Notes: generated by a model not told the origin, from the letters alone. Positions 3,407 through 34,226 are shown, counted from the first letter of the stretch. The stretch: DNA of 64,000 bases from Verrucomicrobiota bacterium (GCA_039796295.1 JBDKJY010000037.1:2199-66198); one strand, 5' to 3'. Translations and numbers: made by a program.

Positions 3407-6769
<3,363 letters not shown>

Positions 6770-8290: not shown

Positions 8291-9991
8291 TCACTTGCTC
8301 CGGTTGATCTTGAAGCTGGAGACGCTGCCCTTGGCCGGGGTTGCGTTCCATTCCGGCAGGCTGGTCTTAGGCGCGGCGGTGGGGGCCATGAGGGCGAGTT
8401 GCTCCACTTGGTGCATCATGGAGGAGAGGTTCACGTTGGCCTTGGAGAGCTCGAACTGGGCTTTCTTCAACTCGGATTCCAGCCCTTGCAGGCGGGTTTT
8501 GAAGATCACGAGCATGGCGACGCCGAGGAACAGGATCAGGGCCGAGATCAGCATGCTGATGATCGGGACCCAGTTCGCGTCGCTGCCGCCAGCGGCGGGG
8601 GCGGCGAGCGGGGCCGTCAGCTCGCGACCGCGGGGTTCGGCCACCGGCTCGCGTGTCCGCGCCGGCTCGTTGAGGATTCCCCCGGCGTTGGTGTCCGCCG
8701 CACCGCCGGGCGGGAGGCGGAAAAAATCAGGCGTGGACGGAGCGGGGGCGGGTTCCTTCGTCGCCGCCGGCGCGACGGGGGCAGGTGGGGCAGTGAAGGG
8801 CGGAAGGCTCAGTTCCTTGGCGGTGGTGCCGGGTGGGGCGGATTTGGTGAACGCGGGCGGCGGGGGCACCTCCATGGCCTTGCCCGGCGGGGGCAGCGTG
8901 GGGATGGCGGGGAGCGGTTCCCGTTCCCGCAGGGCGCTGGCGGCGTTCAAGCTGGTGGAAGCCTCCGGCGGGGGCGGTGTGAGGGCGGGTTCTTTGCCGG
9001 TGTAGGACAGTGGCACAAAGGTGCCGGGGGTCGGCTTGGTCGGCGTGAACCCGGTGGCCGCGGCGGTCATCGGGGACTTCTCCGGCACTGCCGCCAACGC
9101 GGTCGGGGCGGCGGGCGCGGGACGGCCGCCTTGACCGAGGTGTTGCTTGGCCAGCTCGTGACCCTGTGCGGCTGCTTTTTCAATCCACGCGCGGCCTTCC
9201 GTTTCGTTGCGCTCTGTGCCTTCGCCGACGAGGAGGGCGCGACCGTAATCGAATTGCGCGCCGGGGAAATTCTGGACCGCCGCCTTGCGAATCCACTTCG
9301 TTGCTTCCTTCAAGTCTTGCTCGACGCCTTGGCCCAACTGGTAAAGCCGCCCGAGCAGGAACTGCGCGCGTGCGTCCTCGCCGGGAGGATACGCTGCCCG
9401 GCGCAGCCAGCGGGACGCTTCAACGAGGTCTTTCTCGACGCCGTTGCCGTTGATGTAGGCGAGCCCGACGTTGCACTGCGAACGCGCGTCGTCTTGCTCC
9501 GCTGCTTTGCGGAACCACTCGAAGGCTTTCTTGCTGTCCTTGAGCACGCCTTCGCCTTTCAGGTAGCAGAGGGCGACGTTGTATTGCGCGTCGGGCAAGC
9601 CCTGTTGGGCGGCGAGTTCATACCACTTCACGGCCTCGCGGAGGTCAGCGGTCACGCCCTCCCCTTGGTCGTAGAGCGTGCCCAAGACATATTGCGCCCG
9701 CGCGTCCCGTTGTAGCGCTGCTGCGCGCACCCAGCGGGCGCCTTCGGCCAAGTCCTGCGTGACGCCCTCGCCGCCGAGGTAGGCGTGGCCGAGGAGGCGC
9801 TGGGCGATGACATCCCCGCGCTCCGCCGCCGCGCGGAGTTCCGCGAAGGAGCGGATGGTCGGAGCGCTGGGTGAGAGTGCCGGGGCGGCTACCACCGCAT
9901 GGTTGACTGCGAGCAATAGCGCCGTTGCGAGTGCCAAGGTGAGGTGGACGAGGCCGTTGCCCAGTCGGAGCGGCGTGAGAAATTTGGTCAT
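8291..9991 (-). CDS. Sel1-repeat (TPR-like) protein with Pro-rich linker, one TM helix and C-terminal coiled coil
   Basis: ORF 8291..10045; start moved to ATG 9991 (MTKFLTPL, signal-like). About 7 Sel1 units (A..W..KAA.QG...AQ..LG..Y..G.GV..D). These are followed by a PAP-rich segment, the TM helix WVPIISMLISALILFLGVAMLVIF, and a coiled coil. Confidence 0.85.
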   Translation of the reverse strand: MTKFLTPLRLGNGLVHLTLALATALLLAVNHAVVAAPALSPSAPTIRSFAELRAAAERGDVIAQRLLGHAYLGGEGVTQDLAEGARWVRAAALQRDARAQYVLGTLYDQGEGVTADLREAVKWYELAAQQGLPDAQYNVALCYLKGEGVLKDSKKAFEWFRKAAEQDDARSQCNVGLAYINGNGVEKDLVEASRWLRRAAYPPGEDARAQFLLGRLYQLGQGVEQDLKEATKWIRKAAVQNFPGAQFDYGRALLVGEGTERNETEGRAWIEKAAAQGHELAKQHLGQGGRPAPAAPTALAAVPEKSPMTAAATGFTPTKPTPGTFVPLSYTGKEPALTPPPPEASTSLNAASALREREPLPAIPTLPPPGKAMEVPPPPAFTKSAPPGTTAKELSLPPFTAPPAPVAPAATKEPAPAPSTPDFFRLPPGGAADTNAGGILNEPARTREPVAEPRGRELTAPLAAPAAGGSDANWVPIISMLISALILFLGVAMLVIFKTRLQGLESELKKAQFELSKANVNLSSMMHQVEQLALMAPTAAPKTSLPEWNATPAKGSVSSFKINRSK

Positions 9992-11814: not shown

Positions 11815-12173
11815 AGCGCGGAGGCTAGCGGGCGGAGCGGAGGGAACCAAGCTGTAACGTGGCGCGCGGGTGTGTCGCCGACCAGCCGCAGCCTTCCCGC
11901 CCTCCCGCAATCATCGCTCAACGCAGACTAGCCAGAGGTGAGCACCTGCTGCGACTGGTGCCGCGCGCACAGTCGGCCTCGGTTCCGTTTGCTGTTCGGG
12001 GGCAAGGCTGGCGCTGCGGCCACGGAACCGTGCGTGGCAGGAAACGCTTTGCTTCGGCCACCTCGTTATACAGAATCCGCCACCCGATGAACGACGCCTC
12101 TCCCACCCTCGCTGCCACGCTAGGCGGGGGGGGCTGAACCGCAGCGGCTTCCTCTTTGCCCACCGCCCCACCC

Positions 12174-13214
12174 ATGAGCCACGTCAGCGACTACTTCCAA
12201 ACCCTCGGCCAGACAATGGCCAGCCAGCTCGGCGACCACCCCGAGCCGGACAGTGTCTTCGCGGCCATCGCCACCGATGTGTTAAGCGCGGTGCCTGCGC
12301 CCCCGATTGACGTTCTGGCGATGGCGGACTGGGCCGGGCAACAAGATCCGCTCCCCAAGCAGGTCAACTTCAAGTCTGGCTTCGGTCAGCCGCCGCTGGT
12401 GGTCTTCGTGGCCCCCGGCTTCTACATCGAGGTGCTCTTCTGGTTCCCCAGCCGCACCGGCATCCACGGGCACGGGTTCACGGGCGCGTTCCGGGTGCTG
12501 AACGGTTGCTCGGTCCAGGTCGAATACCGGTTCCTCGAGGAGTCCGCCCCGGAGGAGGGACTGCGGCTCGGTAAGCTGGTCGCGCAGGGGATCGAGATGG
12601 TCGCGCCGGGCAAGGTGTGTTCCATCCTGGGCCGGGATGACTTCATCCACTGCGTCGCGCATCTGGGCAACCCCTCCCTCACGCTGGTGGCCCGCACCTA
12701 CGGCAGCAAGGACCTGCGGCAATTCTCCTTCCATCGGTGCGGCTTTGCCCTCCGGGCGAAATACCAGCAGCAGACCATGGAACGGCAGGCGGCGGTGCTG
12801 GCGGCGGTGTTCAAGGCCCGCCCGGCGGCCTTCAGAGAACGGCTCCTGGCCTATCTCGCCGCCACCGACTGCGCCGCCTGCTATGCCGTCCTGAGTGAAC
12901 TCAAGTCCCTCCTCGCCTTTCCCGTGTTCACCAAGCAGGTGCTGCCCGCCGTCCGGGAGCGCTTCGGGGCCACCCACGCGCCCGCACTGGCGGCCCTCGA
13001 CGAGGACGTTCGCTCCAACGGCATCTGGGGCCTGATCGGTAAGCTCAACGATCCCCGGCAGCAGCTCCAGCACGCCCTCACCGAGCTATTCCCCGACGAG
13101 CGGGAACGCGATGCCCTCATCTGCCAATCCCTCGGCGTGGCGGATGCCCAGCCGGTGTTAGCGGAATGGTTGCGGATCGCCGAACAGTCCTCTGCTCCGC
13201 CGGCCACTGGTTGA
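12174..13214 (+). CDS. hypothetical protein, cupin-like N-terminal half
   Basis: ORF 12156..13214 (TTG); ATG at 12174. GIHGHGFTGAFRVLNGCSVQVEY resembles a metal-binding double-stranded beta-helix motif. The C-terminal half is helical. Convergent with the cyclase gene. Confidence 0.6.
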   Translation: MSHVSDYFQTLGQTMASQLGDHPEPDSVFAAIATDVLSAVPAPPIDVLAMADWAGQQDPLPKQVNFKSGFGQPPLVVFVAPGFYIEVLFWFPSRTGIHGHGFTGAFRVLNGCSVQVEYRFLEESAPEEGLRLGKLVAQGIEMVAPGKVCSILGRDDFIHCVAHLGNPSLTLVARTYGSKDLRQFSFHRCGFALRAKYQQQTMERQAAVLAAVFKARPAAFRERLLAYLAATDCAACYAVLSELKSLLAFPVFTKQVLPAVRERFGATHAPALAALDEDVRSNGIWGLIGKLNDPRQQLQHALTELFPDERERDALICQSLGVADAQPVLAEWLRIAEQSSAPPATG

Positions 13215-13243
13215 GACTCGCCGGGCCGGGGTGCCCCAGCGCG

Positions 13244-15181
13244 CTAGCCTTCCACAGCCTGCTTCCCCGCGCGCCCCTGCTCCTGCTGCCAGAGCGTCAA
13301 CGCGGCCAGTGCGTGGCGCACGGTGAGGGTGGGCGGGTGCTTCAGGGCTTCGCGCAGACGGACCGTGTCCACCCACGGGTTGGGCTGGCACAGGCGCTCA
13401 TGCACCGCCGCCAAGGGCTTCGCCTCCTGCCGCTCCTTCTGCCGCTCCGCCAGCGCCGGGTCCTGCTTCACCGAATCCCACGGGACGGCTGGGGGGAAGA
13501 GCTTGCTCGTCGCATGCCGATACAGCACCCGACCCTGACCCGGCTGGTAATGCAGCTCCGGCGGCACGCCATACACGAACTCCAGCACCCGCCGGTCGGT
13601 CAGCGGGTAGGCATACGTCAGCCCGTGTTCCGCTCCGAAGGCCGCCCACGACTCCATCCGCGCCGTGACATGGCCGTGGTAATAGAGCGCCGCCTGGCAT
13701 CTCCGGCTCCCCGGCACCTCCCGCACGTGCGGCACGTCCGTGCGCAGGTGCGGGCGGATGCGCTCGGCGAACTCCACTCGGATAAACGGCTCGCCCCGCT
13801 TACTGCGCGCCTGCCGATACGCCAGCCGCTCCCACAGCGCGGCCGGCAACGTGGGCAGCACCGCACTATCCCAGAACGCCCGCAGCGCCACCAACGCCAG
13901 CCCCGGGCGACGCCACGCGCGCCCCAGCCCCAGATACCCCGCCAGCGCCCCCCACTCTCCGCGCACCAGATAATCCGCCGCCAACCCCCGCCCATTGTAG
14001 CTCACCCCTTCATCCCCGCCCCAACCCGACAGCATCAGCCCGACCCCTTGCGCCGCCGCGCGCACTTGCACCGACCGCTCCAGCCCCATCGTCAGCGCCG
14101 GCCGCAGGGAGATGTCCAGCTCCGCCATCCAGCGCTCATCGTCATCGGTGGCCTCCGTGTAGAGCGGCGTCAACCCCTCCTGCTGGCAGATGGCCACAAT
14201 GCGCCGGTGCTCCGTCTCCTCTGGCTTGGACCCCGGCGGTGGGGACCAGGAGAACATCGTGGGCACCGCCGCCCCGCGCTGCCGCTGGAGCCGCGCCGCC
14301 AGCACCGCCACCGACGATGAATCCAGCCCCCCGCTGAGGTGAGCCCCCACCGGCAGCCGCGTCCGCAAGCAATCCCCTACCGCCCGCTCCACCAGCGCGT
14401 AAAGCTGCTCCACATAGTCGGCGTGCCGCGCCAGCCGCACATCCGGCAGCCGCTCGGGGAACCAATACCGCGCCACCCGCAACCCCCGGTCATCCACCGT
14501 CAGCGTGTGGCCGAATGGCAGCTTGCGCACGCCCCGGTAGTAGGTGCGGACATTGTCATGCGCCCCCGGAGACAGGTTCAACAGCAGCCACCCCACCTCC
14601 ACCTCATCCAGCTCCCGCCGCACCCCGGGGATGGCGAGCAAGGCCGGCAAGTCCGTGGCGAAGGCGAACTCCCGCTCCGTGTGCCAGTAGAACAGTGGGC
14701 GTGCTCCGATGTGATCCCGCGCGAGGAACAGCCGCCGCGCCCCCGCATCCCAGACGGCGAAGGCGTAATCCCCCACCAGATGCTCCGTGCAGCCCTCCCC
14801 CCACCGCTCCCACGCCCGCAGCAACAGCGCCTCATCCGACACCATCGCGCGTTCCGCCGACGGCACGTCCAGCGCGGCGCACAGCTCCGGCCGTCCATCC
14901 AGCCGCGCATCCGCCACGACGGTCAAGGGTCCACGGGTGAGGATGGCAGTTTCCGGTAGGGCCGCGCTGTGCGCGGTCTTGTCTTCCTCCGGCCGTCCAC
15001 AGGACGGCCCTACCGCCTCCGGCGTGAAGTGCTGCACCTGGCAGCCGAGGGCGATGGGACCGCTGCTCCACAGGCCACGCGCATCCCGGCCATACTGCTC
15101 CATCAGGGACAGGGCAGGGGAGAGGGCCGCTGGGGAGACCGGCGCACCGTCCAGCCGGAACAGCCCGGCAATGGCACTCAT
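13244..15181 (-). CDS. asparagine synthetase-like lasso peptide cyclase (C protein) candidate
   Basis: 645-aa ORF. ATP-PPase motif HLSGGLDSS is present, but the N-terminus MSAIAG lacks the Cys2 glutaminase nucleophile. Compare the true AsnB at 33962..35878, which starts MCAITG. The start overlaps the PqqD stop (ATGA, 15178-15181). Confidence 0.8.
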   Translation of the reverse strand: MSAIAGLFRLDGAPVSPAALSPALSLMEQYGRDARGLWSSGPIALGCQVQHFTPEAVGPSCGRPEEDKTAHSAALPETAILTRGPLTVVADARLDGRPELCAALDVPSAERAMVSDEALLLRAWERWGEGCTEHLVGDYAFAVWDAGARRLFLARDHIGARPLFYWHTEREFAFATDLPALLAIPGVRRELDEVEVGWLLLNLSPGAHDNVRTYYRGVRKLPFGHTLTVDDRGLRVARYWFPERLPDVRLARHADYVEQLYALVERAVGDCLRTRLPVGAHLSGGLDSSSVAVLAARLQRQRGAAVPTMFSWSPPPGSKPEETEHRRIVAICQQEGLTPLYTEATDDDERWMAELDISLRPALTMGLERSVQVRAAAQGVGLMLSGWGGDEGVSYNGRGLAADYLVRGEWGALAGYLGLGRAWRRPGLALVALRAFWDSAVLPTLPAALWERLAYRQARSKRGEPFIRVEFAERIRPHLRTDVPHVREVPGSRRCQAALYYHGHVTARMESWAAFGAEHGLTYAYPLTDRRVLEFVYGVPPELHYQPGQGRVLYRHATSKLFPPAVPWDSVKQDPALAERQKERQEAKPLAAVHERLCQPNPWVDTVRLREALKHPPTLTVRHALAALTLWQQEQGRAGKQAVEG

Positions 15182-15465
15182 GCCGTCACCGTCTGGATGT
15201 GCAGCAGCTTGTCCGTGTGAAGCTGGGTGAGGAAGGCCAGCACCTCCCGCTCACACACCGCCGGGTCCACCTCGAACTCCGACTGGAGCTGGGTGACCAG
15301 CTCGCTCACCCGACACGGCTGTTCCACCGCCGCCCACACCCGAGTGGCCATGCGGTTCATCTGGTAGTATTCCCCATTCTCGATGCTCAGGAGCACGGCC
15401 TGCTCATCCAGCGTGCCGGAGATCAGCTCAGGGGCACGGACCACGGTGGAGGTAGAGAATATCAT
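15178..15465 (-). CDS. PqqD family RiPP recognition element (lasso B1/E-type chaperone)
   Basis: ORF 15178..15600; start moved to ATG 15465, giving 95 aa. Typical PqqD pattern: GTLDEQAVLLSIENGEYYQMNRMATRVWAAVEQPCRVSELVTQL. Translationally coupled to the cyclase. Confidence 0.85.
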   Translation of the reverse strand: MIFSTSTVVRAPELISGTLDEQAVLLSIENGEYYQMNRMATRVWAAVEQPCRVSELVTQLQSEFEVDPAVCEREVLAFLTQLHTDKLLHIQTVTA

Positions 15466-15553
15466 AGCGGCATGCAAAGTAAGGGGCAGCAGGTGAGGGT
15501 CAAGTCGGAACCCGGCCACACAGGCGACGGAGCGCGGGCGGTGGGTAGGGCTT

Positions 15554-15640
15554 GGAGTCCCGGCTTCAGCCGGTGGAGCCGTCCGGTTCACCTGTGCCAC
15601 GCGTGCGCGCTGCCGGCTAAAGCCGGGACTCCAAACGGGG
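15554..15640. repeat. 87-nt structured element, copy 1 (20-bp inverted arms GGAGTCCCGGCTTCAGCCGG / CCGGCTAAAGCCGGGACTCC)
   Basis: Near-identical copy at 17684..17770. The arms are complementary apart from one mismatch. Lies between the precursor A1 stop and the PqqD start. Confidence 0.8.
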
Positions 15641-15698
15641 GGCGGGCTGCGGACGCGGGGACCGCAGTCCGGGGGGGCGAACGCGGGCTGCGGTAGTG

Positions 15699-15854
15699 CT
15701 AGGAAGGGGGGGCCGCAGTGCTACGAGAGGTCTCCCTAGTAAAGGAATTTTTTTCCGTCCCCTCGGCAAGGTCGAGGGGCAGTAGCAGCGGCGTCTCCCA
15801 AGGGAGCTTGGCGGCGGGGGCTGGCGGGGCGGGGGATGCTGATTCGGTTTGCAT
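15699..15854 (-). CDS. lasso-type precursor peptide paralog A1 (51 aa, below the ORF-track cutoff)
   Basis: Hand translation of the minus strand: MQTESASPAPPAPAAKLPWETPLLLPLDLAEGTEKNSFTRETSRSTAAPPS, stop TAG. The leader is shared with three paralogs. Lies immediately upstream of the PqqD and cyclase genes. Confidence 0.7.
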   Translation of the reverse strand: MQTESASPAPPAPAAKLPWETPLLLPLDLAEGTEKNSFTRETSRSTAAPPS

Positions 15855-15863
15855 GGCGGCGGG

Positions 15864-15894
15864 AGAGTAGTGGGGGGGGGCGGAGGGCTGTCAA
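15864..15894 (-). promoter_or_regulatory. sigma70-like promoter candidate for A1 (TTGACA-19 nt-TACTCT, 9 nt to ATG)
   Basis: Minus strand has TTGACA (15894..15889) and TACTCT (15869..15864). The spacer contains a G9/C9 run. The module is conserved upstream of all four precursor ORFs. Confidence 0.45.
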
Positions 15895-16102
15895 CGGGAG
15901 AGGGTGGCCCAAGCGCACCGGAGCGCGGGTAGGGCGCGGTGTCCTCCCCGCGCCGCCGAATGGGGAGTGGCATCCGGTTGGCCCACGGCAAGGGGAGGCC
16001 ACCCCGCCCTACCTGCTCCCGGCTGCGGCCAGGCGCAGCTCAGTATTTTGCACGGCCAGGTGGGGATGGTGAATTCGTTGCTCACAAAACGTCGCGCGTC
16101 TT

Positions 16103-16245
16103 CACCCTCACCCCGGCCCTCTCCCTCCAAGGGAGAGGGAGAGCGCTTTACGCCGGCTCGTGCTTCCGAGCACGCCCTTTCGCCGCAGCGCGGCCTGCGT
16201 GGCTCCCTCTCCCAGCGGGAGAGGGCTGGGGTGAGGGAGAACGGC
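16103..16245. repeat. inverted pair of 'GEGRGEG-type' elements (CTCACCCCGGCCCTCTCCC..GGGAGAGGG)
   Basis: 16103-16145 and 16204-16245 are reverse complements of each other and flank about 60 bp. The same family occurs at 19261-19390, 28207-28333, 37623-37668, 46321-46362, 49150-49190 and 49296-49338. Confidence 0.8.
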
Positions 16246-16380
16246 TCCGAGTGCAGAACCGGGTTGCAGGAAAGTAATATGCGCCCCTGCGGCCCATCCC
16301 TTCATTAAGGCGTTGACAAACCAACCCCGTTTCGATAGAGAAAAACCGTCCACACAATCTGAACCGAACCAATCCAAGCT

Positions 16381-17073
16381 ATGCCCTTCAAATACATCCA
16401 AGTTCCGAACACCAAAGACCCGAACAAATCCTCCACCCGCGCCGCCCTGGGCGACCCCGTAAGCGAAGCCGAGTTCTTCGCCTACATGGCCATCCTCCTC
16501 AGCAAACCGCCTGCCGATTGCGAAGCGGCCTTCAATGCGTTGCTGGATACCTGTGTCCACTTCGCCCGGGATACCCGCGCCACCAGCTACCTGCATGGCC
16601 GCCTGCGTATGCAACCCTCCAGCGGCGGCAGCTTCGAGACCGGCACCACCCCGCACTCCCCCAAGGACATCGGCGCGCGTATGAACCTCAGCCTCGGACC
16701 TGATACCGTCGCCGCCTTCGAGGACGACCTGAGCATCGAGAAGGTGGGCGAGGAAGGGGTGCGCGCCCCGCAGATTGACCGCGTGATAGACAACCGCACC
16801 GGGGACACCGATAAATACACGGCCTCCGATGTGCTGGAGGTGGACGGGGAGCACTTCGAGATCGACCCGACGGACACCGCGCAAGGGGTCTTCCTCACCC
16901 CGGTGGCGAGCGGTTCGGCTGTGCGCATCACCCGTTACCTGAGCGTCACGCCTACCCGCATCGAAGTGCTGCTGCCGGCCGGCCTCACCGGCCAGCAACG
17001 CCTCATGGTGGTGTGCAAGTATGACACCAGCCCCCTGCGCTCCAGCACTTACACCAGCGCCCTCAGCCCGTAG
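16381..17073 (+). CDS. HU-like DNA-binding N-terminal domain plus DUF4469-like Ig-fold C-terminal domain protein
   Basis: 230-aa ORF. The C-terminal pattern IDRVIDNRTGDTDKYTASDVLEVDGEHFEIDPTDTAQGVFL...RIEVLLPAGLTGQQRLMVV resembles Bacteroidetes HU/DUF4469 proteins. On the opposite strand to the surrounding RiPP genes. Confidence 0.5.
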   Translation: MPFKYIQVPNTKDPNKSSTRAALGDPVSEAEFFAYMAILLSKPPADCEAAFNALLDTCVHFARDTRATSYLHGRLRMQPSSGGSFETGTTPHSPKDIGARMNLSLGPDTVAAFEDDLSIEKVGEEGVRAPQIDRVIDNRTGDTDKYTASDVLEVDGEHFEIDPTDTAQGVFLTPVASGSAVRITRYLSVTPTRIEVLLPAGLTGQQRLMVVCKYDTSPLRSSTYTSALSP

Positions 17074-17259
17074 GGTCACCCTCCGCCGGTCTGACCCCCA
17101 CCCTCCGCACCACCGAGGGTCACCCTCGCGACGCCGTAGGGTCACCCTCCGACGAGCTGAGGGTCACCCTCCATGAGTCTGAGGGTCACCCTCGTTACGA
17201 CTGAGGGTCACCCTCGTGACGGCTGAGGGTCACCCTCCGCGCGGCTGAGGATGACCCTT
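17071..17259. repeat. tandem array: 9 units at an exact 22-bp period of the 13-bp palindrome GAGGGTCACCCTC
   Basis: Units start at 17071, 17093, 17115, 17137, 17159, 17181, 17203, 17225 and 17247. Five are perfect GAGGGTCACCCTC, two are TAGGGTCACCCTC, and two are degenerate. Spacers are variable 7-mers followed by CT. Confidence 0.95.
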
Positions 17260-17423
17260 GGGGCAGCGCAGGGCTACGTTTGGAATGCACGTGGGGTGCG
17301 GGGCCATCGCCGCACCGCCTTGGTCTGGTGGAATTCAAGTGGCAGACGGCGGGGTGAGGACACCCGCGCTACTGGGAGGTCATTAGGCGAAGGGCCTAGC
17401 CGCCGGTAGGGCAGCGCTTGCGT

Positions 17424-17582
17424 CTATGAGGCCGGGCCTGAGCTTCTGGTAAGTTGTTCAACGGCAGTGATTACAGTCTTCTGGGTCTCATCGGCGAGGT
17501 CGAGGGGGAGGAGGAGCGGGGTCTCCCAGGGGAGCTTGGCGGCGGGGGCTTGCGGGGCGGGGGAGGCAGGTGCGGTCTGCAT
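17424..17582 (-). CDS. lasso-type precursor peptide paralog A2 (52 aa)
   Basis: Hand translation: MQTAPASPAPQAPAAKLPWETPLLLPLDLADETQKTVITAVEQLTRSSGPAS, stop TAG. Confidence 0.7.
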   Translation of the reverse strand: MQTAPASPAPQAPAAKLPWETPLLLPLDLADETQKTVITAVEQLTRSSGPAS

Positions 17583-17591
17583 GGCGGCGGG

Positions 17592-17619
17592 AGGGTAGCT
17601 GGGGTTGGCGAGCTGTCAA
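17592..17619 (-). promoter_or_regulatory. sigma70-like promoter candidate for A2 (TTGACA-16 nt-TACCCT, 9 nt to ATG)
   Basis: Minus strand has TTGACA (17619..17614) and TACCCT (17597..17592). Same module as the other three copies, but with no poly-G run in the spacer. Confidence 0.45.
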
Positions 17620-17683
17620 CGGAGGAGGCAGGCCCAAGCGGTGCGGAGCGCAGACGCCTCCATCCGCAGGCGGGTTGTGGCTG

Positions 17684-17770
17684 GGAGTCCCGGCTTCAGC
17701 CGGTGGAGCCGTCCGATTCACCTATGCCACTCGTGCGCGCTACCGGCTAAAGCCGGGACTCCAAACGGGG
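17684..17770. repeat. 87-nt structured element, copy 2
   Basis: More than 90 percent identical by eye to 15554..15640. Lies between the precursor A3 stop and the A2 promoter module. Confidence 0.8.
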
Positions 17771-17938
17771 CGACGGCGGGTTGCGTTCTCCCTCACCGCC
17801 TACCGACTCAGATGCTGGGGGACTGCGTCCCGCAGGGGCTCCGATGGGGGGAGTCGTAACCTAGGCAAGTCCGACCGTTGCTACGGGTCGCAGACCGGCG
17901 CTGCAAGCGCAGCGTTCAGTGCACCGGCGGCGGGCGGC

Positions 17939-18097
17939 CTACGAGACGGGGCCAAAGGCGGTTCCGATTTCGGTGCTTTGAGGGACGGGCCCGGAATTTG
18001 TCCCGGCGGGGACATCCAGGGGTGTGCAGAGCGGGGTCTCCCACGGGAGCTTGGCGGCGGGGGCTGTCGGGGCGGGGGAGGCAGGTGCGGTTTGCAT
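17939..18097 (-). CDS. lasso-type precursor peptide paralog A3 (52 aa)
   Basis: Hand translation: MQTAPASPAPTAPAAKLPWETPLCTPLDVPAGTNSGPVPQSTEIGTAFGPVS, stop TAG. Confidence 0.7.
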   Translation of the reverse strand: MQTAPASPAPTAPAAKLPWETPLCTPLDVPAGTNSGPVPQSTEIGTAFGPVS

Positions 18098-18106
18098 GGC
18101 GGCGGG

Positions 18107-18134
18107 AGAGTAGCTGGGGGGGGCGGGCTGTCAA
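18107..18134 (-). promoter_or_regulatory. sigma70-like promoter candidate for A3 (TTGACA-16 nt-TACTCT, 9 nt to ATG)
   Basis: TTGACA (18134..18129) overlaps the oxygenase stop codon (18131-18133). The spacer holds a G8/C8 run. Confidence 0.45.
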
Positions 18135-18787
18135 TTGATCGGAGCGCGGGCGTGGGGAGGGCGCTGCGGCTTGACCTTGTCCGCCTTGAGGTGGGCATAG
18201 GGGCCGTCCGCCCGGACGTAGTGCAGGAAGGTCTGGATCATCTCGGTGCCGGTGAAGGGCTCACGCCAATGGGGGCGCTCGATGCCCTGGTAGACCAAAC
18301 CATCCCCCGCCGCGAGGTGGGCGGGCACGGCTTCCCCGGTAGGCGTCTCCACATACAAAGGCCAAGGCACCTGCGGATCGGGCTGGAGGGCGAGGGAGAG
18401 GCTGATTTCGCAGGCGGGGCGGTCCGTGTGCCGGGCCAGCACGGCCCCCGGCTCGTAGATGCGCATGAAGGAGTAGGTAGGCAGGAGCCGGTGGCCGGTG
18501 AGCTGCTCAACCTGCGGGAGCAACCGTAGGAGGAGGTCCTCCGTGACGAGGTTCTTGTAGGCGACGGTGGCCGCTGTCACCGCTCCTTCGCCCCGGCGCA
18601 GGAGGTTGTGGGCCTTCATGGTCTTCAAGTCGGCGGCGGCCTTGGCGCAGACGGCGGCGGGCAGCAAGCCACGGGCGATGAGATAGCCGTGGGTGGCGAA
18701 GGCGTGGGCGGTGTCCACCGGAGCGGGAGGGGATGAAGGGGGACTGCTGGTGGGGGTCTGAGGTGCGCGGGGGGGTGGCGGTGGCAT
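18131..18787 (-). CDS. Fe(II)/2-oxoglutarate-dependent oxygenase
   Basis: ORF 18131..19195; start moved to ATG 18787 (MPPPPPRAPQ..), because the upstream part reads through precursor A4 and repeats. The HxD...H triad is visible: ARHTDRP and ERPHWREP. Confidence 0.75.
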   Translation of the reverse strand: MPPPPPRAPQTPTSSPPSSPPAPVDTAHAFATHGYLIARGLLPAAVCAKAAADLKTMKAHNLLRRGEGAVTAATVAYKNLVTEDLLLRLLPQVEQLTGHRLLPTYSFMRIYEPGAVLARHTDRPACEISLSLALQPDPQVPWPLYVETPTGEAVPAHLAAGDGLVYQGIERPHWREPFTGTEMIQTFLHYVRADGPYAHLKADKVKPQRPPHARAPIN

Positions 18788-18891
18788 CGGGCTCACGATG
18801 CAGCGGACTTTCCGCGTGGGAAGGACTAGCGTCAACCGGGAATCCGGACCCCAGACCCGCAGGCTGAAGGGGCGGACACGACCTGCTTGGA

Positions 18892-19047
18892 CTACGAGGC
18901 GGGGCCGGAGCGGGGACCGGATTCCCTGTAGAAGGTAAATGTTTTGTTTGTCTCTTCGGCGGCATCGAGGGTCTGGCAGACGGGCGTCTCCCAAGGGAGC
19001 TTGGCGGCAGGGGCTGGCGGGGCAGGGGAGGCAGGTGCGGTTTGCAT
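18892..19047 (-). CDS. lasso-type precursor peptide paralog A4 (51 aa)
   Basis: Hand translation: MQTAPASPAPPAPAAKLPWETPVCQTLDAAEETNKTFTFYRESGPRSGPAS, stop TAG. Confidence 0.7.
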   Translation of the reverse strand: MQTAPASPAPPAPAAKLPWETPVCQTLDAAEETNKTFTFYRESGPRSGPAS

Positions 19048-19056
19048 GACGGCGGG

Positions 19057-19084
19057 AGAGTAGCTGGGGGGGGCGGGCTGTCAA
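19057..19084 (-). promoter_or_regulatory. sigma70-like promoter candidate for A4 (TTGACA-16 nt-TACTCT, 9 nt to ATG)
   Basis: TTGACA (19084..19079) and TACTCT (19062..19057). G8/C8 run in the spacer. Confidence 0.45.
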
Positions 19085-19151
19085 CGGAGGAGGCAGGCCG
19101 CAAGCCCGGGGATGAGCCTGCGGGCGGCGAGCGGTTCCCCTAGCCATGAAC

Positions 19152-19218
19152 CGGAGCGCCGAGCATTGCTCGGCAGGAGCGGATGAACGCTCCAAAGCCG
19201 AGCGATGCTCGGCGCTCC
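19152..19218. repeat. REP doublet (GGAGCGCCGAGCATTGCTCGGC ... GCCGAGCGATGCTCGGCGCTCC)
   Basis: Same 22-nt REP family, in inverted pairs, as the copies flanking the RAYT gene at 62.6-63.6 kb. Confidence 0.85.
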
Positions 19219-19260
19219 ACCTCGGTTCAGGGGATGAAATCGCGGCAATTGATGGACCGT

Positions 19261-19390
19261 GGATTCTCTCCCAGCGGGAGAGGGACAGGGTGAGGGAGAA
19301 CGGCTAGGAGTCGTAGCGGGGAGGGATGTCTCCAGACCTCGCTGCCATTCTCCCTCACCCCAGCCCTCTCCCGCTGGGAGAGGGAGGCAG
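19261..19390. repeat. MITE-like unit bounded by an inverted pair of GEGRGEG-type elements
   Basis: 19264-19305 and 19346-19385 are reverse complements of each other (about 40-bp terminal inverted repeats). Confidence 0.75.
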
Positions 19391-19442
19391 GCAGGCCGCT
19401 TCAGTGTTAGCGAGGCGCTGGGGACACCTGGCCTTGCGTAGC

Positions 19443-20305
19443 TCAGTGCACCGGTTGGCCGGTGGCATCCAGGTAGCCATACTGGCGCATGACGTCGGCG
19501 TGGTCGGCGATGACGCGGGCGGCTTGCTCGGGGGTGAGGGCGTCGCGCCAGGAGCCGATGCTGCCCCGGCGGAAGAAGGCCTTGGCCTTGGGGAGGCGCT
19601 CCCGGAAGCCGCCGGCTTGCTCCTGCCGCTGGAGTTCCTCAAAGCGGCTGAACTCGATGGCCTTGCGGATGCGCTCGGGGTCGTCGGGCAGGCCGAGGAA
19701 GCGCACGGCGGTGGTGAAGGTGGCTTCGGGGGTGAGCTTCATGTCCTCGTAGCGGATGACTTGCACGCGGAGGCCGGGGGCGGTGGCCCAACTGGTGACG
19801 TGGCGGCTCCAGGAGAGGAGGCGCTGGCGGAGCTGGTTCGGCTCGGTGGCATCGCTGACGGCCACGCAGGCGTCGGGCTTGCCCAGCAGCTTGACGGAGC
19901 GCTCGTAGTCGGTGCTGCCGCCATGAGCGGCGTAGGAGACGGCGACGTCCAGGGGGTTACGGATAAAGTAGAGGGCGGCCTCGGTGGCCTCGGGGGGCAG
20001 GAGGGGGCGGCCGTCGGGCAGGAAGGTGTAGGCGTCGTGGCACTTGCAGTAGAGGGTCTCCTTGGCCTGGCGGGCGAGGTGGAGATAGACCTCGGGGCGG
20101 AGGGCGTCGGCCTCGTCGGGGGTCAGCTCGCCGGAGTCGTAGCCGACGGCGTTGTCGAAGGGGGCGCGGGCGCTGGAGATGGGGCCGCCGTCGAGGGCAT
20201 TGATGTCGGCGGGCTGGGGGCATCCCGGAGGAAGTTGGTGAGGAAGGTGCGGAACCAAGTGTTACCGGACTTGGGGTAGGAGGCGAGCCAGACGATGCGC
20301 TTCAT
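19443..20305 (-). pseudogene. sulfotransferase, split by a 1-nt frameshift (pseudogene or homopolymer sequencing error)
   Basis: The PAPS 5'-PSB motif MKRIVWLASYPKSGNTWFRTF (ATG 20305) is in one frame. The rest, including the 3'-PB-like IRNPLDVAVSY, is ORF 19443..20258 in another frame. Reading the G5 run at 20216-20220 as G6 gives a continuous ..FLRDAPQPADINALDGGPI.. Confidence 0.8.
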
Positions 20306-20318
20306 GGCGGGCGATGGC

Positions 20319-21256
20319 TCAGGGGCGGAAGTCGGCTTCGAGGCGGTCCACCAGCTCGGTGAGGCGGAAGGCGCCCTCGGGCCGGGTGACGCGGGTGACG
20401 GTGGCCTGCTGGGCGAGGGCCAGGGCGGCGCGGAAGTGGGCGGGCTTGGCGGCGAGGCCATCCACGAAGTGGAAGCGGTAGGTCTGCTGCTTGAGGGCGT
20501 TGAGGCGCTGGGGGCCTTCGACGGAGGTGAGCTGGAGGTCGGGGTCGTTAGTGGCGCGGAGGAGGTAGAGCTTGCGCACCGGGAGGGGGACGGTGGCGAA
20601 GGCGGTGCCCAGGGGGACGGCGCGCTTCTCCAGCGCGGGCCGGATGCGCTGGAGGCCATCGGGTGCGAGGTCGAATTGCTTGAGGGAGTCCAGCCAGAGC
20701 TTGGCATGGGGGAGGCCGGGGTGGAGGACGAGGCGGCCGGTGGCATCCGGGCGGATGGCACAGACGTCGTCGGTGAGGACGGGGTAGCCGCGGCGCTGGC
20801 AGGCGATGGCGGTGGTGGACTTGCCGACACCGGAGATGCCGAGGAAGGCAACGCAGGTATCACCCGTGGCGATGGCGCTGCCGTGGAGGACGAGGTCACC
20901 GCGTTGGTGGAGGAGGGCGGCGAAGGCGGAGCCGTAGAGGAAGAGGCGGACGTCCTCGGGGTCCGCACCGGGCGGGGACTCGATGACGATGCGCCGGCCG
21001 TCCGCGATGAGGAAGCGGGCGATGCCGTCCACGATGAGGAGGAGCTGGCCGGGGGCGGCTTGATAGCGGACGCCACGGTCGGTGGCTCCGGGGAGTTCGG
21101 TGGGGACAGGGCCGGTGAGGATCTCGACGTCGGCGGGGCCATCGGTGGAGGCGGGGGAAGCTCGGGGAGGGGCAGGGTGGAGTGGATGCGCAGGCCGTAG
21201 GCTTGGTGCTGGGGCGGTGGGGGCGGTGGGTTGTCTGTAGTTTCTGGGTCGGCCAT
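20319..21256 (-). pseudogene. HPr kinase-like (HprK-related) peptide kinase, split by a 1-nt frameshift (pseudogene or sequencing error)
   Basis: The N-terminus MADPETTDN..QAYGLRIHSTLPLPELP (ATG 21256) is in one frame. The body, with the P-loop FLGISGVGKSTTA, is in the frame of ORF 20319..21365. Reading the G5 run at 21153-21157 as G6 gives ..LPELPPASTDGPADVEILTG.. Confidence 0.65.
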
Positions 21257-21359
21257 GCGGAGCTACCGTTAGCATGAGGCGGAGGGTGATGTCGAGGGAG
21301 GGGGAGGGCGGGTGAGGATTGGCTGGCCTTGGCGAGGGTGGATTCCCCATGCTGAGGGG

Positions 21360-22487
21360 ATGCAATGGCTTGTGCCGGAACCGGAGTGGCTGGGGGCGTT
21401 ACCCACGGATGTGGCGGCGCATGTGCGGCAACTGGCGGCGTTACCGGGCTTCCCCCGGCACTTGGCCCGGTATAGCGCCGTGCTCAAGAAGCTGAACGAG
21501 AAGCACACTGGCTCGGCCAAGGTGCTGGCCGAGCAGGCGTGGCGGCTGGGGGGCCAGGACCCGGTGGTCCGCCAACACGCGCACTGGGCGATCAGCAAGC
21601 GGGTGCCGGGCTGGCACTTCGGGATCATCAACGACGACGCGCGGAATGCCATCTACCAGGCGGCGCTGAACCGGCATGTGCGTCCGGGGATGATCGTCTT
21701 CGAGGTGGGGACGGGGACGGGCATTCTCGCCATGCTGGCGGCGCGCGCCGGCGCGGCGCATGTCTATACGTGCGAGATGGAGCCGTTGCTGGTGGAGGTG
21801 GCGCGGGAGAACATCGCGCGGAACGGGCTGACGGAGCGGGTGACGGTGATTCCCAAGCGGTCGGACAAGGTGGAGTTGGGCGTGGACCTGCCGGAGCGGG
21901 CGGACCTCTTCGTGGCGGAGATCGTGGATAATGGCCTGCTGGGCGAGGAGGCGCTGGGCATCACGGCGGACGTGCAGGCGCGGCTGCTCAAGCCTGGGGC
22001 GGTGTTGGTGCCCGATCAGATCGAACTGCGCGGGACGCTGGTGGGCGGGCCGTTGGCGAGCCGGGCGTTCCGGGCGCGGCCGGCGTGTGGGCTGGATGTC
22101 TCGGCGCTGGACCGGCTGGGGTCGGGGGTGGTGCAAAGTCCGGCGGGGCTGGAGACGGACCTGGCGGAGGACGTGGTGGCGCTGCACTTCGATCTTGCGC
22201 AGGCGGGAAGTTACCGGACGGCGCAGACGAGCGTGGCGGTGCAGGGGCTAAGGGACGGTGAGGCGGAGGGTTTCCTGAGCTGGATCTGGCTGCGCTTCGG
22301 CGAGGGGCTGGAATACACGAACCGTCCGCCGACGGTCAGTTGCTGGGGTCCGCGCATTCACGTGTTCCCCACGCCCATGCCAGTGACGGCCGGCCACCTG
22401 GTGACGATGCAAGTGCAGCACGACTGCAAGCGGGTGAACATCTGGTCGGAGGCCGGTGGGGCCGGGGTAGGGGAACCGGCAGCGTAA
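21360..22487 (+). CDS. class I SAM-dependent methyltransferase, protein arginine N-methyltransferase (PRMT)-like
   Basis: ORF 21312..22487; ATG 21360. HFGIINDDARNAIYQAALNRHVRPGMIVFEVGTGTGILAMLAARAGAAHVYTCE matches the PRMT pre-motif I and motif I layout. ADLFVAEIVDNGLLGEEAL resembles the PRMT double-E loop region. Confidence 0.65.
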   Translation: MQWLVPEPEWLGALPTDVAAHVRQLAALPGFPRHLARYSAVLKKLNEKHTGSAKVLAEQAWRLGGQDPVVRQHAHWAISKRVPGWHFGIINDDARNAIYQAALNRHVRPGMIVFEVGTGTGILAMLAARAGAAHVYTCEMEPLLVEVARENIARNGLTERVTVIPKRSDKVELGVDLPERADLFVAEIVDNGLLGEEALGITADVQARLLKPGAVLVPDQIELRGTLVGGPLASRAFRARPACGLDVSALDRLGSGVVQSPAGLETDLAEDVVALHFDLAQAGSYRTAQTSVAVQGLRDGEAEGFLSWIWLRFGEGLEYTNRPPTVSCWGPRIHVFPTPMPVTAGHLVTMQVQHDCKRVNIWSEAGGAGVGEPAA

Positions 22488-22512
22488 ACGCAGGGCGGGG
22501 GTGCCGCCGCAC

Positions 22513-23619
22513 TCACCGCACGCGGACGAAGACCTTGCCGGGCAGTTGCCGCACCATCCGCTTCATCTCCAGACTCAGCAGCCCCACCGAGACGGCGGAC
22601 GCTGGCAGGCCGCTGGCGCGGATGACTTCGTCCATGTGCGCCTCCTCGTGCGTCACGACGGCGAGGATTTTGGTTTCGTTCTCCGAGAGGGACAGCCCCG
22701 GCAGCACGCCGGTCTCGCCGGGGGAGGGCGGCTTGTTCGAGGCGGGGAACAGATACTCGAACTCGCTCAAGATGTCCTCCGCGCCCTCGCAGAGCTTCGC
22801 ACCTTTCTTGATCAGGTCGTGGCAGCCCTTGCTGCGCGGCGAGTCAATCCGCCCGGGCACGGCGAAGACCTGGCGGCCGTAGTCCGTGGCGAAGTTCGCC
22901 GTGATGAGCGCGCCGCTGCTGAGGTTCGCCTCGACGACGACGGTGCCCAGCGTCATGCCCGCGACGATGCGGTTGCGGATGGGGAAGGACTGCTTGTCCG
23001 CCGGGCGGTTGAACGGGAACTGCGAGACAACCGCGCCACTCGCCGCGATGCGTTGGAACAGCTCTGCGTTCTCGGGCGGGAAGACCAAGTTAATGCCCGT
23101 GCCCAAGACCGCGACCGTGCGGCCCTTCGCCGCCAGCGCGCCCTGGTGCGCCGCCGTGTCAATCCCACGCGCCCCGCCGCTCACCACCGTGACGCCGATG
23201 TAGGCGAGTTGGTAGCCGAGCTTGCGCGCCGTCTCGACGCCGTAACTGGTGGTCTGACGCGAACCGACGAGCGCGACGGAGTGCTTGTCCTGTGCGGTGA
23301 GCGTGCCCTTCACGTAGAGCACGATGGGCGGGTCGTAGATTTGCCGGAGCGACTCGGGATACTCCGGGTCCTCCTGCGTGAGCACGTGGCAGCCGTAGTC
23401 CGCGATACGCTTCAGCTCGCCGCTCAGGTCAACGCCACTCTCCCAGTCGGCAATCGCGTCCGCCGTCTCCGCGCCGATGCCGCGCACCTGCTGGAGCTGC
23501 TGCTGGTTCGCGCGCAAGATGGTCGGCGCGTCGCCGAAGTGGTCGAGCAGTTGCCGGACGCGCACCGGGCCGACGTGCTCAATCAAGTTGAGGGCGATGA
23601 ACGCTTCCTTGGAGGTCAT
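22513..23619 (-). CDS. dprA: DNA-processing protein DprA/Smf
   Basis: ORF 22513..23928; start moved to ATG 23619. VALVGSRQTTSYG, SGGARGIDTAAHQGAL and FPIRNRIVAG motifs are typical of DprA. Confidence 0.9.
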   Translation of the reverse strand: MTSKEAFIALNLIEHVGPVRVRQLLDHFGDAPTILRANQQQLQQVRGIGAETADAIADWESGVDLSGELKRIADYGCHVLTQEDPEYPESLRQIYDPPIVLYVKGTLTAQDKHSVALVGSRQTTSYGVETARKLGYQLAYIGVTVVSGGARGIDTAAHQGALAAKGRTVAVLGTGINLVFPPENAELFQRIAASGAVVSQFPFNRPADKQSFPIRNRIVAGMTLGTVVVEANLSSGALITANFATDYGRQVFAVPGRIDSPRSKGCHDLIKKGAKLCEGAEDILSEFEYLFPASNKPPSPGETGVLPGLSLSENETKILAVVTHEEAHMDEVIRASGLPASAVSVGLLSLEMKRMVRQLPGKVFVRVR

Positions 23620-33041: not shown

Positions 33042-34226
33042 ATGGCGGATTGCTCGGCTGCGCAGACCGTGGTCACCAACCTCGATTTCGAACTCTCGCA
33101 AGCGCGCGAAAGAGATGCTCGCGCAGTTCACCGAACAGTCAATGACATCGCTGGTCTCACAAGGGACCGAGCCGAGGCCGATCTACAAGCGGCATGCCTG
33201 CGAGAGTTGATCGCAACCGGACAGATCCACAACAGACACAAGGGCATCGACACAACCCAAGAAAGCACCCAAGCAACGACCAAGTTGATCAGCTTGGGGG
33301 CAACACTCACACGCTACACCATCGAGGCGGTTTCAGCAGAATTGGCGTTCATTGACTTGCGCTCGTTGCTTCTGTCCGCTTCGTTTTTTTATCGACATGA
33401 ACTAAGCCACAGCGACCAACCCGCCGACCCAGCACTCAACGAGGCGATTTTCGCAGGATTAGTTTGGCTGGCGGCGGCGGCGGCAGGCGCAGGTTACTAC
33501 GATCCGGCGATCTCCATCGCAATCTCGGCGAGGAGGTTCGCGGAGCTAAGTGGCATTTCGCGCTCGCACTTCAGCAGACGAACATACGGCCAAAGTCTGC
33601 TGGCGGAAGCACAAGCACATCTCGGAAAGCGTAACTACCTCGCGGCCTCAGAAAAGGCAAAGCATTGCCTTCGGTGGACCCACCAGTGCGAAATGGAGTG
33701 GGGGGAGACCAACGAAAACAGGAAATTAGTTTGCGTGCGAGTCATCGCCATGTCCTACCGGAGCGTTTCAAGCCTGGGGTTGCCGGCCGCCGGCCCGGAG
33801 TATTTTTGGGAATGGGGAAATGCGGAGTCCTGGGCGCTCGCGCGCGTGGCGTCGTTGGCATCCGGCATGGCGAGAGGTTGGCAAGCTTCGTGGGGAGAGA
33901 CAACCCTAGCCTGGATTCCTTCACCCCTTCAGGGTGCGCCTCGCTCAACGCCCCTGCACGGTCAGGCGCGCAAGCTTTCCCGCCCCGTCATTGAGCGCTC
34001 GACGAAGATGCGGTGCCAGAGTTCCAGCCAAAGGAGGGACCAGAGGCGGTGGGTGTGTTGGGCCGCGCCGCTGGTGTGCTCGGTGATGAGGCGCTGGATT
34101 TCGGTCTTCTTGAACCAGCCGGCTTTGACGAGGTTGCCGTCGGGGAGGAGGCGGTTCAGGACGGGGGCGAGGTCGGTGCGGAGCCAGTGTTTCAGCGGGA
34201 GACTAAAACCCTTCTTCGGGCGGTAG
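33042..34226 (+). CDS. hypothetical protein in a lower-GC insert (3' end uncertain or possibly disrupted)
   Basis: ORF 32901..34226; ATG 33042. Protein-like composition across about 300 aa in a visibly AT-richer segment. The last ~265 nt run antisense through the asnB 3' end, so the true terminus is doubtful. Confidence 0.35.
   Translation: MADCSAAQTVVTNLDFELSQARERDARAVHRTVNDIAGLTRDRAEADLQAACLRELIATGQIHNRHKGIDTTQESTQATTKLISLGATLTRYTIEAVSAELAFIDLRSLLLSASFFYRHELSHSDQPADPALNEAIFAGLVWLAAAAAGAGYYDPAISIAISARRFAELSGISRSHFSRRTYGQSLLAEAQAHLGKRNYLAASEKAKHCLRWTHQCEMEWGETNENRKLVCVRVIAMSYRSVSSLGLPAAGPEYFWEWGNAESWALARVASLASGMARGWQASWGETTLAWIPSPLQGAPRSTPLHGQARKLSRPVIERSTKMRCQSSSQRRDQRRWVCWAAPLVCSVMRRWISVFLNQPALTRLPSGRRRFRTGARSVRSQCFSGRLKPFFGR

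Follow-up and report, generated by a model that had tools for sequence, protein, structure and literature searches.

A probable paeninodin-like lasso-peptide cluster without leader peptidase or exporter genes in an uncultured Verrucomicrobiota bacterium

The DNA analyzed here, referred to as the window, is a 64-kb stretch (JBDKJY010000037.1, positions 2199-66198) of a metagenome-assembled genome (MAG) from an uncultured member of the Verrucomicrobiota. It contains a candidate locus for ribosomally made, post-translationally modified peptides (RiPPs) of the lasso type. Read in the direction of transcription, the minus strand carries genes for an HprK-like kinase, a sulfotransferase, precursor A4, an oxygenase of ~195 residues, precursors A3, A2 and A1, a PqqD-type RiPP recognition element (RRE) and an AsnB-like cyclase (locus tag RL514_3673, on a contig of 66 kb). 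A plus-strand DUF4469 gene and a repeat array are located between A2 and A1, and a PRMT-like methyltransferase is transcribed divergently from the kinase. The minus-strand order agrees with that given in the original prediction for this DNA and is supported by open reading frame (ORF), Pfam and NCBIfam analysis. Given that the GC content of the window is ~68%, ORF lists are full of spurious frames; the real genes were chosen by GC pattern at third codon positions (GC3) and by homology. Homology scans employed Pfam, NCBIfam, PDB sequence and profile searches, and tblastn against relatives, and folds were predicted with AlphaFold (AF2) and compared by Foldseek. The relatives included loci L002 (GCA_964578245.1, CAZOCL010000003.1), L003, L004, L040, L041/L059 and L045, with flanking DNA examined as retrieved (±10 kb for L002).

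The AsnB-like protein (645 residues; 13244-15181, minus strand) contains the Pfam domains Asn_synthase and GATase_7, and its best NCBIfam match is the lasso macrolactam synthetase (C protein) model NF033535. It scored 318 bits (E = 1.3e-94) against this model and 137 bits against the asparagine synthase model asn_synth_AEB, and thus groups with lasso cyclases over asparagine synthase. Homologues with 33-77% identity are found within lasso clusters. The N terminus (MSAIAG) has no Cys2, and SGGLDSS is kept at residue 283. An internal contrast is provided by a genuine, glutamine-hydrolyzing AsnB encoded 20 kb away (33962-35878, minus strand; PF00733, E = 8e-93), which starts MCAITG; a gene for a ParE-family toxin (35944-36255, minus strand) adjoins that asparagine synthase gene. 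The RRE (B1, 95 residues; 15178-15465, minus strand; PF05402, E = 1.5e-18) has the lasso PqqD chaperone model NF033536 as its best match (77.7 bits against a cutoff of 80) and is 88% identical to a 95-residue protein of L002. Its stop codon and the cyclase start codon overlap as ATGA, an arrangement consistent with translational coupling. Both this overlap and the loss of Cys2 with retention of SGGLDSS had been described in the original prediction and are confirmed here. An independent contig, L001, was 100% identical to the window over positions 12184-15583, which include the cyclase gene.

Four precursor ORFs of ~51 codons constitute a 159-nt, four-copy repeat family on the minus strand, comprising A1 (15699-15854), A2 (17424-17582), A3 (17939-18097) and A4 (18892-19047); no further copies were found in the 64-kb window. 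The leader of A1 is MQTESASPAPPAPAAKLPWETPLLLPLDLAEGTE, and the predicted cores are KNSFTRETSRSTAAPPS (A1, Glu7), KTVITAVEQLTRSSGPAS (A2, Glu8), SGPVPQSTEIGTAFGPVS (A3, Glu9) and KTFTFYRESGPRSGPAS (A4, Glu8). The leaders conform to M-Q-T-x-x-A-S-P-A-P-x-A-P-A-A-K-L-P-W-E-T-P-[L/V]-x-x-x-L-D-x-x-x-x-T-x, which includes a WxxPxL motif and Thr at position -2, and are followed by hypervariable cores of 17-18 residues. Three of the four predicted cores begin with Lys, and the ring-closing amine is predicted to come from Lys1 or Ser1.

Seven such precursors are present in the same block of L002, three of them (5936-6121, 8869-9063 and 9370-9555) uncalled in its annotation. The small ORFs are thus conserved in a syntenic relative, and the four precursors originally predicted are substantiated as a repeat family with an invariant upstream block. 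All 11 precursors (four from the window and seven from L002) share the leader KLPWE[T/S]P...LD...T-x, with WE[T/S]PL and Thr at -2. Their cores, of 16-19 residues, are hypervariable, yet Glu stands at position 7, 8 or 9 in every one, and all terminate in [G/A]-P-x-S, with Ser as the last residue; Arg is not conserved. Judged from these alignments, the pairing of a conserved leader with a hypervariable core that keeps its length, Glu7-9 and the C-terminal Ser is what marks RiPP precursors under selection. The fixation of Glu at positions 7-9 in 11 of 11 cores makes sense only for ring closure. The motif [Y/W]xxPx[L/V/I...] is that bound by discrete lasso RREs, and the Trp of WxxP is near-invariant specifically in paeninodin-like precursors (PMC13381572). 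In more distant loci, no convincing precursors were found adjoining the kinase or RRE; analogous ones were found downstream of the cyclase instead, namely a precursor in L003 (...KLAWEKPDV...GTT, then TKVHNVLESGTSVGPS) and, in L040, a precursor of 60 residues with GPLPS at its end.

Alignment of the four cassettes revealed an invariant block before each window precursor, TTGACA-N16-TAC(T/C)CT (N19 for A1), ending 9 nt before the ATG. The blocks lie on the minus strand at 15864-15894 (A1, TTGACA-N19-TACTCT), 17592-17619 (A2), 18107-18134 (A3) and 19057-19084 (A4), and the TTGACA of the A3 block overlaps the oxygenase stop codon. Given this spacing, near-leaderless transcripts would result. The separate promoters of the original prediction therefore have a counterpart in a conserved block before each precursor, but a sigma-70 consensus scan of 15.1-22.6 kb called no promoter, the TTGACA...TAC(T/C)CT blocks falling under threshold. 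Since the scan is silent on the blocks, they are regarded here as putative promoters.

The kinase gene (20319-21256, minus strand) encodes the P-loop GISGVGKST and gave weak matches to PF07475 (E = 1.9e-4), TIGR04355 and TIGR04352 (HprK_rel_A/B). Its product is 89% identical to the 314-residue kinase of L002 over residues 40-314, and the L004 orthologue carries both ScmC (PF27840) and Hpr_kinase_C (PF07475). A frameshift near 21143-21158 places the conserved N terminus (YGLRIHSTLPLPEL; motif AYGLRIHSTLPLPEL) out of frame with the body, and an ATG at 21275 opens a 318-residue ORF that retains the catalytic body. The adjacent sulfotransferase gene (Sulfotransfer_1; 19443-20305, minus strand) has lost 1 nt in the C-run at 20216-20221 and is thereby disrupted, the deletion splitting the 3′-phosphoadenosine-5′-phosphosulfate (PAPS) loop (PKSGNTW) from the remaining protein; PF00685 matches the C-terminal ORF (E = 1.3e-18). 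When the intact 287-residue sulfotransferase of L002 was compared with the window, residues 1-32, including the PAPS loop, were found in one frame and residues 31-287 in another. Kinase and sulfotransferase are both intact in L002. As regards homology and position, the HprK-like kinase and sulfotransferase of the original prediction are therefore correct, but the former is frameshifted at its N terminus and the latter is broken.

Assembly error in the MAG was considered as the source of the frameshifts and rejected. Independent assemblies from two different runs (L042 and L043) were 100% identical to the window, without gaps, over 19360-23337 and 19360-21095, and thus the frameshifts are real in this population. 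Given the frameshifted gene, sulfation has probably been lost in this genome, and kinase function may be impaired. In linear lasso precursors, the C-terminal Ser is phosphorylated by HprK homologues (PMC8498205), in line with the activity originally proposed for the kinase, and among the secondary enzymes of paeninodin-like clusters an HprK kinase is typical (PMC13381572). The co-occurrence of HprK kinase and sulfotransferase in lasso clusters was noted bioinformatically in 2014 and 2016 (PMC4289311, PMC8498205). The role of the sulfotransferase accompanying HprK-type lasso kinases was described as unknown in a 2021 review (PMC8498205), and no later characterization of a lasso-cluster sulfotransferase was found in the literature searched.

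The oxygenase gene was assigned to 18131-18718 (minus strand; ~195 residues), with a GTG start at 18718 and an alternative ATG at 18787; a 354-residue ORF was considered for this gene and rejected. Its product is 91% identical to that of a 191-residue L002 gene. It has no Pfam or NCBIfam match even at E ≤ 1, and PDB sequence and profile searches were empty. Given the lack of sequence matches for this protein and for the 352-residue protein described below, structure prediction was needed. Its relatives comprise 3,358 cluster representatives, and 2 of 48 relatives touch 2-oxoglutarate (2OG) oxygenase Pfam families. The AlphaFold model has a mean confidence (pLDDT) of 94.7, and the top Foldseek matches were Pseudomonas putida prolyl-4-hydroxylase (P4H), SnoN and PHD2 (E = 6e-11, TM 0.71-0.76). 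In the motif H97-x-D99...H150-x-R152, conservation is complete at H97, D99 and R152 and at least 90% at H150. With its predicted double-stranded β-helix, HxD...H triad and basic 2OG-binding residue, the protein is thus, at the level of the predicted fold, an Fe(II)/2OG oxygenase of the P4H type, as the original prediction held. The sole Pro conserved in the cores is that of the C-terminal [G/A]-P-x-S, which makes it a candidate substrate for the oxygenase.

The methyltransferase gene (21360-22487, plus strand; alternative GTG start at 21312) encodes an S-adenosylmethionine-dependent enzyme of 375-391 residues. It matches PrmA (E = 1.2e-13), its best PDB matches are PRMT7, PRMT9 and PRMT6 (E ~1e-24), and a double-E loop of the form E-x8-E can be read from the sequence as AEIVDNGLLGEE. 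The PDB matches and the loop bear out the PRMT-like assignment made originally and, with it, a class I SAM fold. A syntenic gene in L002 encodes a protein 84% identical to it, and homologues occur inside related lasso clusters.

The leader peptidase B2 is a defining enzyme of lasso-peptide biosynthesis. No B2 (transglutaminase-like Cys protease, PF13471) was detected in the window by tblastn, by Pfam scans of plausible genes of 100-630 residues, or by a profile HMM built from 120 B2 proteins, which was run with filters off and recovered its positive controls. B2 is likewise missing within ±10 kb in L002, where the cyclase is 77% identical to that of the window and the syntenic block runs methyltransferase, kinase, sulfotransferase, A(n), oxygenase, A, RRE, cyclase. 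The Opitutaceae loci L003 and L004 have cyclases 55 and 48% identical to that of the window and the order kinase, sulfotransferase, (methyltransferase), RRE, cyclase; here, B2, an ABC transporter and NTP_transf_5 lie 4-6 kb from the orthologous genes. In both loci, genes for phage-tail-collar (PF07484) and DUF6916 proteins directly follow the cyclase (L003, 12367-13646; L004, 12313-13276).

A B2 gene is present elsewhere in the same MAG. RL514_1525 (P0176, 147 residues) lies on a 168.7-kb contig in a kinase-PqqD-B2 arrangement, and three independent contigs of this locus (L006-L008) end 70-166 bp past B2 in a hairpin resembling repetitive extragenic palindromic (REP) elements. Relatives of the locus at 81-83% identity, obtained by metagenome scan, are complete clusters of the form kinase, (sulfotransferase), RRE, B2, (methyltransferase), cyclase...NTP-transferase, ABC, with cyclases only 33-36% identical to the window cyclase. 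Given these complete relatives, it is probable that this MAG contains a complete paeninodin-like cluster in addition to the B2-less one described here. The same pairing was observed in Opitutaceae GCA_035568935.1, in which L003 is the locus with B2 and L040 the one without. Records labeled "uncultured Klebsiella sp." or "Proteobacteria bacterium" (L044, L046, L050 and L051, from CAZCBE01 and CAZOCL01; L045 and L049, from RFSE01) contain genes 77-83% identical to those of this MAG, and their labels look unreliable.

The space between A2 and A1 is occupied by an inserted module outside the pathway (16381-17258, plus strand), which consists of the DUF4469 gene (16381-17073; PF14734, E = 2.4e-9) and a palindrome array (17072-17258) that begins at its stop codon. 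The original prediction was right in its DUF4469 assignment; the HU domain that it also proposed for this protein was rejected, as no support was found. The array, also as predicted, consists of 8.5 units of the palindrome AGGGTCACCCT with an exact period of 22 bp (two helical turns), giving 15 matches where 0.9 were expected; no such array was found elsewhere in the window. Gene and array are absent from the syntenic L002. The array looks like a putative binding-site array for a dimeric DNA-binding protein, carried on the inserted module.

A long hairpin separates A1 from the RRE-cyclase operon (15549-15647, minus strand), and a second copy, 92% identical, follows A3 (17679-17777). Their folding energies are -61.6 and -60.3 kcal/mol (z = -4.4). 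Further near-perfect hairpins resembling REP elements or miniature inverted-repeat transposable elements (MITEs) are located at 19153-19218, 19266-19382 and 16101-16251, with related copies near 49164-49334; energies of the intergenic hairpins across the cluster range from -60 to -97 kcal/mol (z from -4.4 to -9.2). Independent short-read contigs terminate in such hairpins (at 15583 and 19360), and L001 breaks inside that at 15549-15647. By its placement, the hairpin between A1 and the RRE-cyclase operon could attenuate read-through, but it also looks like a genome-wide REP-type element. An Rfam scan of the hairpins gave nothing beyond sub-threshold miRNA-hairpin look-alikes.

Convergent on the cyclase gene is a gene for a 352-residue protein (12156-13214, plus strand) that did not appear in the gene list of the original prediction. 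No Pfam or NCBIfam match was obtained for the protein even at E ≤ 1, PDB sequence and profile searches were empty, and the family is rare (82 matches). Its AF2 model (pLDDT 94.3) places cysteine, cysteamine and mercaptopropionate/thiol dioxygenases at the top of the Foldseek results (E ~1e-8). The modeled protein combines a thiol-dioxygenase-like 3-His cupin with a helical domain at its C terminus, and H104, H106, H165 and H169 are invariant. In L040 and L041, members of the family adjoin lasso cyclases or overlap with them, and such loci occur in Verrucomicrobiota and Acidobacteriota. A neighborhood survey, in which 80 GTDB loci were kept from 266 matching stretches, placed a cyclase near the cupin in 11 of the 80, and B2 was present in the retrieved DNA of one of these 11; L041/L059 has both B2 and cupin. 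In a metagenomic protein, P0311 (558 residues), the cupin family is naturally fused to the P4H-like 2OG-oxygenase family, which suggests that the two may act together.

Whether the cupin belongs to the cluster is uncertain. In L002 (13421-15818) and in the 83% identical orthologue of L045 (8513-11044), its gene comes immediately after ftsZ, where the dcw cluster ends, and no lasso genes were found near the L045 cupin. Strict cluster membership was therefore rejected as unproven, and the cupin is treated as a possible, not an established, part of the cluster. In these two related genomes, the end of the dcw cluster is an odd site for a putative peptide-tailoring oxygenase. Given that Cys occurs in the precursors only in the leader, and not universally, a thiol substrate is not evident.

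These data point to a probable lasso-peptide biosynthetic cluster of the paeninodin-like (kinase-associated) kind, and a "satellite" one in that it is without a leader peptidase or exporter. Like the paeninodin-type clusters (padeACB1B2DK of Paenibacillus dendritiformis; ThcoK, SyanK), it combines an AsnB-like cyclase, a discrete PqqD RRE and an HprK-like kinase with precursors that end in Ser and have a WxxP leader and Thr at -2; a sulfotransferase at the edge of such clusters, and an NTP-transferase in them, have already been noted (PMC8498205, PMC4289311, PMC13381572). It differs from them in that B2, an ABC exporter and an NTP-transferase are all missing in cis and in its four (or, in L002, seven) precursors, each apparently with its own promoter. 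The P4H-like oxygenase, the PRMT-like methyltransferase and the flanking cupin are additions to the known arrangement, as is the predicted Lys1 of three of the four precursors. The host, a member of the Verrucomicrobiota, and the frameshifts in sulfotransferase and kinase also set it apart.

We infer the following sequence of steps from the gene content. The four genes, separately promoted, would give precursors of ~51 residues, and the PqqD-type RRE would bind the WxxPxL leader and present the peptide to the enzymes. While the precursor is still linear, its invariant C-terminal Ser would be phosphorylated by the HprK-like kinase. Further modification could then come from the P4H-like 2OG oxygenase and from the PRMT-like methyltransferase, the candidate sites being the Pro of [G/A]-P-x-S and Lys or Arg of the core. 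A B2 cysteine protease encoded elsewhere, for which RL514_1525 is the candidate, would cut the leader after Thr(-2)-x; the AsnB-like cyclase would join the α-amine of Lys1 or Ser1 to Glu7, Glu8 or Glu9; and the product would be exported by a transporter also encoded elsewhere.

Several observations weigh against this assignment. The cyclase score of 318 bits is well under the curated NF033535 cutoff of 525, and the RRE likewise falls under the NCBI curated cutoff, so that both are divergent members of their families and not textbook ones. B2, an ABC exporter and an NTP-transferase (NTP_transf_5) are all missing from the 64-kb window (tblastn; Pfam scans). As sequenced, the sulfotransferase is a pseudogene and the kinase is without its canonical N terminus. 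Lys is unusual at core position 1. The distant B2 has its own RRE and, in its cluster type, a cyclase only ~33-36% identical to that of the window; its acceptance of the leaders described here is thus an assumption, and RREs from pathways within one host are able to tell similar leaders apart (PMC13381572).

Some of these observations would also fit a decaying remnant, that is, a descendant of a lasso cluster that yields no mature product in this genome and whose intergenic space has been invaded by the DUF4469 module and REP-like hairpins. The frameshifts of sulfotransferase and kinase are reproduced in independent assemblies, B2, ABC and NTP-transferase genes are missing from the window, the DUF4469 gene and palindrome array are not found in L002, and four precursors remain here as compared with seven there. 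Such decay is possible, but we consider it rather unlikely given that the ORFs of cyclase, RRE, oxygenase and methyltransferase are unbroken, as are those of all four precursors, whose promoter-like blocks are conserved, and that the catalytic body of the kinase is still open in the 318-residue ORF. Moreover, the cores have diverged strongly and yet have kept their length, Glu7-9 and C-terminal Ser. Given that B2 is also missing in L002 (±10 kb) and from the retrieved flanks of 10 of the 11 cupin-linked cyclase loci, its absence in cis is a trait of the lineage and not a sign of decay.

A second alternative, which we regard as improbable, is that the peptides remain linear or are processed by another protease, in the manner of the linear polyphosphorylated peptide (LPP) clusters of Bacillota, and that the AsnB-like enzyme performs some other ATP-dependent amidation. 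LPP clusters share an HprK kinase, a discrete RRE, an NTP-transferase and an exporter with paeninodin clusters and have a similar leader motif, [Y/W]xxP (PMC13381572). Several precursors with variable C termini are a further likeness to the present locus, as is the presence of a lasso cluster in the same genome (PMC13381572), and the lack of B2 in cis would also be accounted for. However, the defining traits of LPP clusters are an SpI/SipW-like peptidase and the lack of a cyclase (PMC13381572), whereas here a cyclase is present and coupled to the RRE, and no SpI-type or other signal-peptidase family turned up among the scanned genes, although no dedicated SpI search was made. LPP leaders are of the YxxP type with a phosphorylated Ser3; those of the window have WxxP and a terminal Ser, and Glu at positions 7-9 in 11 of 11 cores argues for ring formation. 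That the cupin replaces B2 functionally, or otherwise enables leader removal in this subfamily, is very improbable: the gene is adjacent to or coupled with lasso cyclases at several Verrucomicrobiota and Acidobacteriota loci (10 of 11 without B2 in the retrieved DNA) and is naturally fused to a 2OG-oxygenase domain in P0311, but its fold and invariant 3-His site indicate an oxygenase and not a protease, L041/L059 has B2 as well as the cupin, and in the nearest orthologues (L045 and L002) it directly follows ftsZ, in L045 without lasso genes.

With the satellite lasso cluster thus retained as the preferred reading, the prediction of a lasso-type RiPP locus with four precursors stands in its core (cyclase, RRE and precursors), and the refuting conditions it set for cyclase grouping and for conservation of the small ORFs did not hold; its account of completeness and novelty was overstated in that B2 is missing, the sulfotransferase is disrupted and the kinase is altered N-terminally. 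Two characterized systems offer further comparison. Pseudomycoidin (psm, Bacillus pseudomycoides) is, like the present locus, a kinase-bearing paeninodin-like system; its C-terminal Ser is phosphorylated, its cyclase needs neither leader nor leader peptidase, and the thread is proposed to be held by bulky modifications at the C terminus (PMC6993621). By contrast with the window locus, psm itself encodes B proteins, together with an NTP-transferase by which the phosphate is glycosylated; the window locus is without these, and its precursors have full leaders that need removal. In the canucin pathway of Streptomyces canus, the Fe/2OG hydroxylase CanE tailors the linear lasso precursor near the C terminus (PMC8498205). 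The window locus also has a 2OG oxygenase, but one that is a Pfam orphan with a P4H/PHD-like fold, and it is set beside CanE by description and not by sequence homology.

The original prediction regarded the mix of tailoring enzymes as uncharacterized. For a 2OG oxygenase of this type and for a PRMT-like enzyme this view holds, because no PRMT-like enzyme, prolyl-hydroxylase-type enzyme, thiol-dioxygenase-like cupin or cysteine dioxygenase in a lasso pathway was found in the literature searched; the kinase and sulfotransferase pair, however, had already been reported (PMC4289311, PMC8498205). According to the 2021 review, characterized lasso peptides all come from Proteobacteria, Actinobacteria and Firmicutes (PMC8498205). 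In agreement with the original prediction, the literature searched yielded no characterized lasso peptide from the Verrucomicrobiota or the wider PVC (Planctomycetes-Verrucomicrobia-Chlamydiae) group.

As a tentative generalization, and one that we hold more doubtful than not, Verrucomicrobiota and some Acidobacteriota may carry B2-less "satellite" lasso loci with 4-7 hypervariable, individually promoted precursors. Such loci would draw B2 and exporter from a second, complete cluster and may introduce novel decorations, namely prolyl hydroxylation, Arg/Lys N-methylation, O-sulfation and thiol-dioxygenase-like cupin oxidation. Given that the locus in the window is incomplete and partly frameshifted, its own significance is lower, and the system is best studied in the L002 version. 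The lineage as a whole provides a compact test bed for four or five unassigned tailoring enzymes, with an intact version in GCA_964578245.1 and seven natural core variants. It also raises the question of whether a lasso pathway can be split across two loci that share one leader peptidase, a matter relevant to recent studies of the ways in which RiPP pathways sharing a host escape cross-talk or turn it to use.

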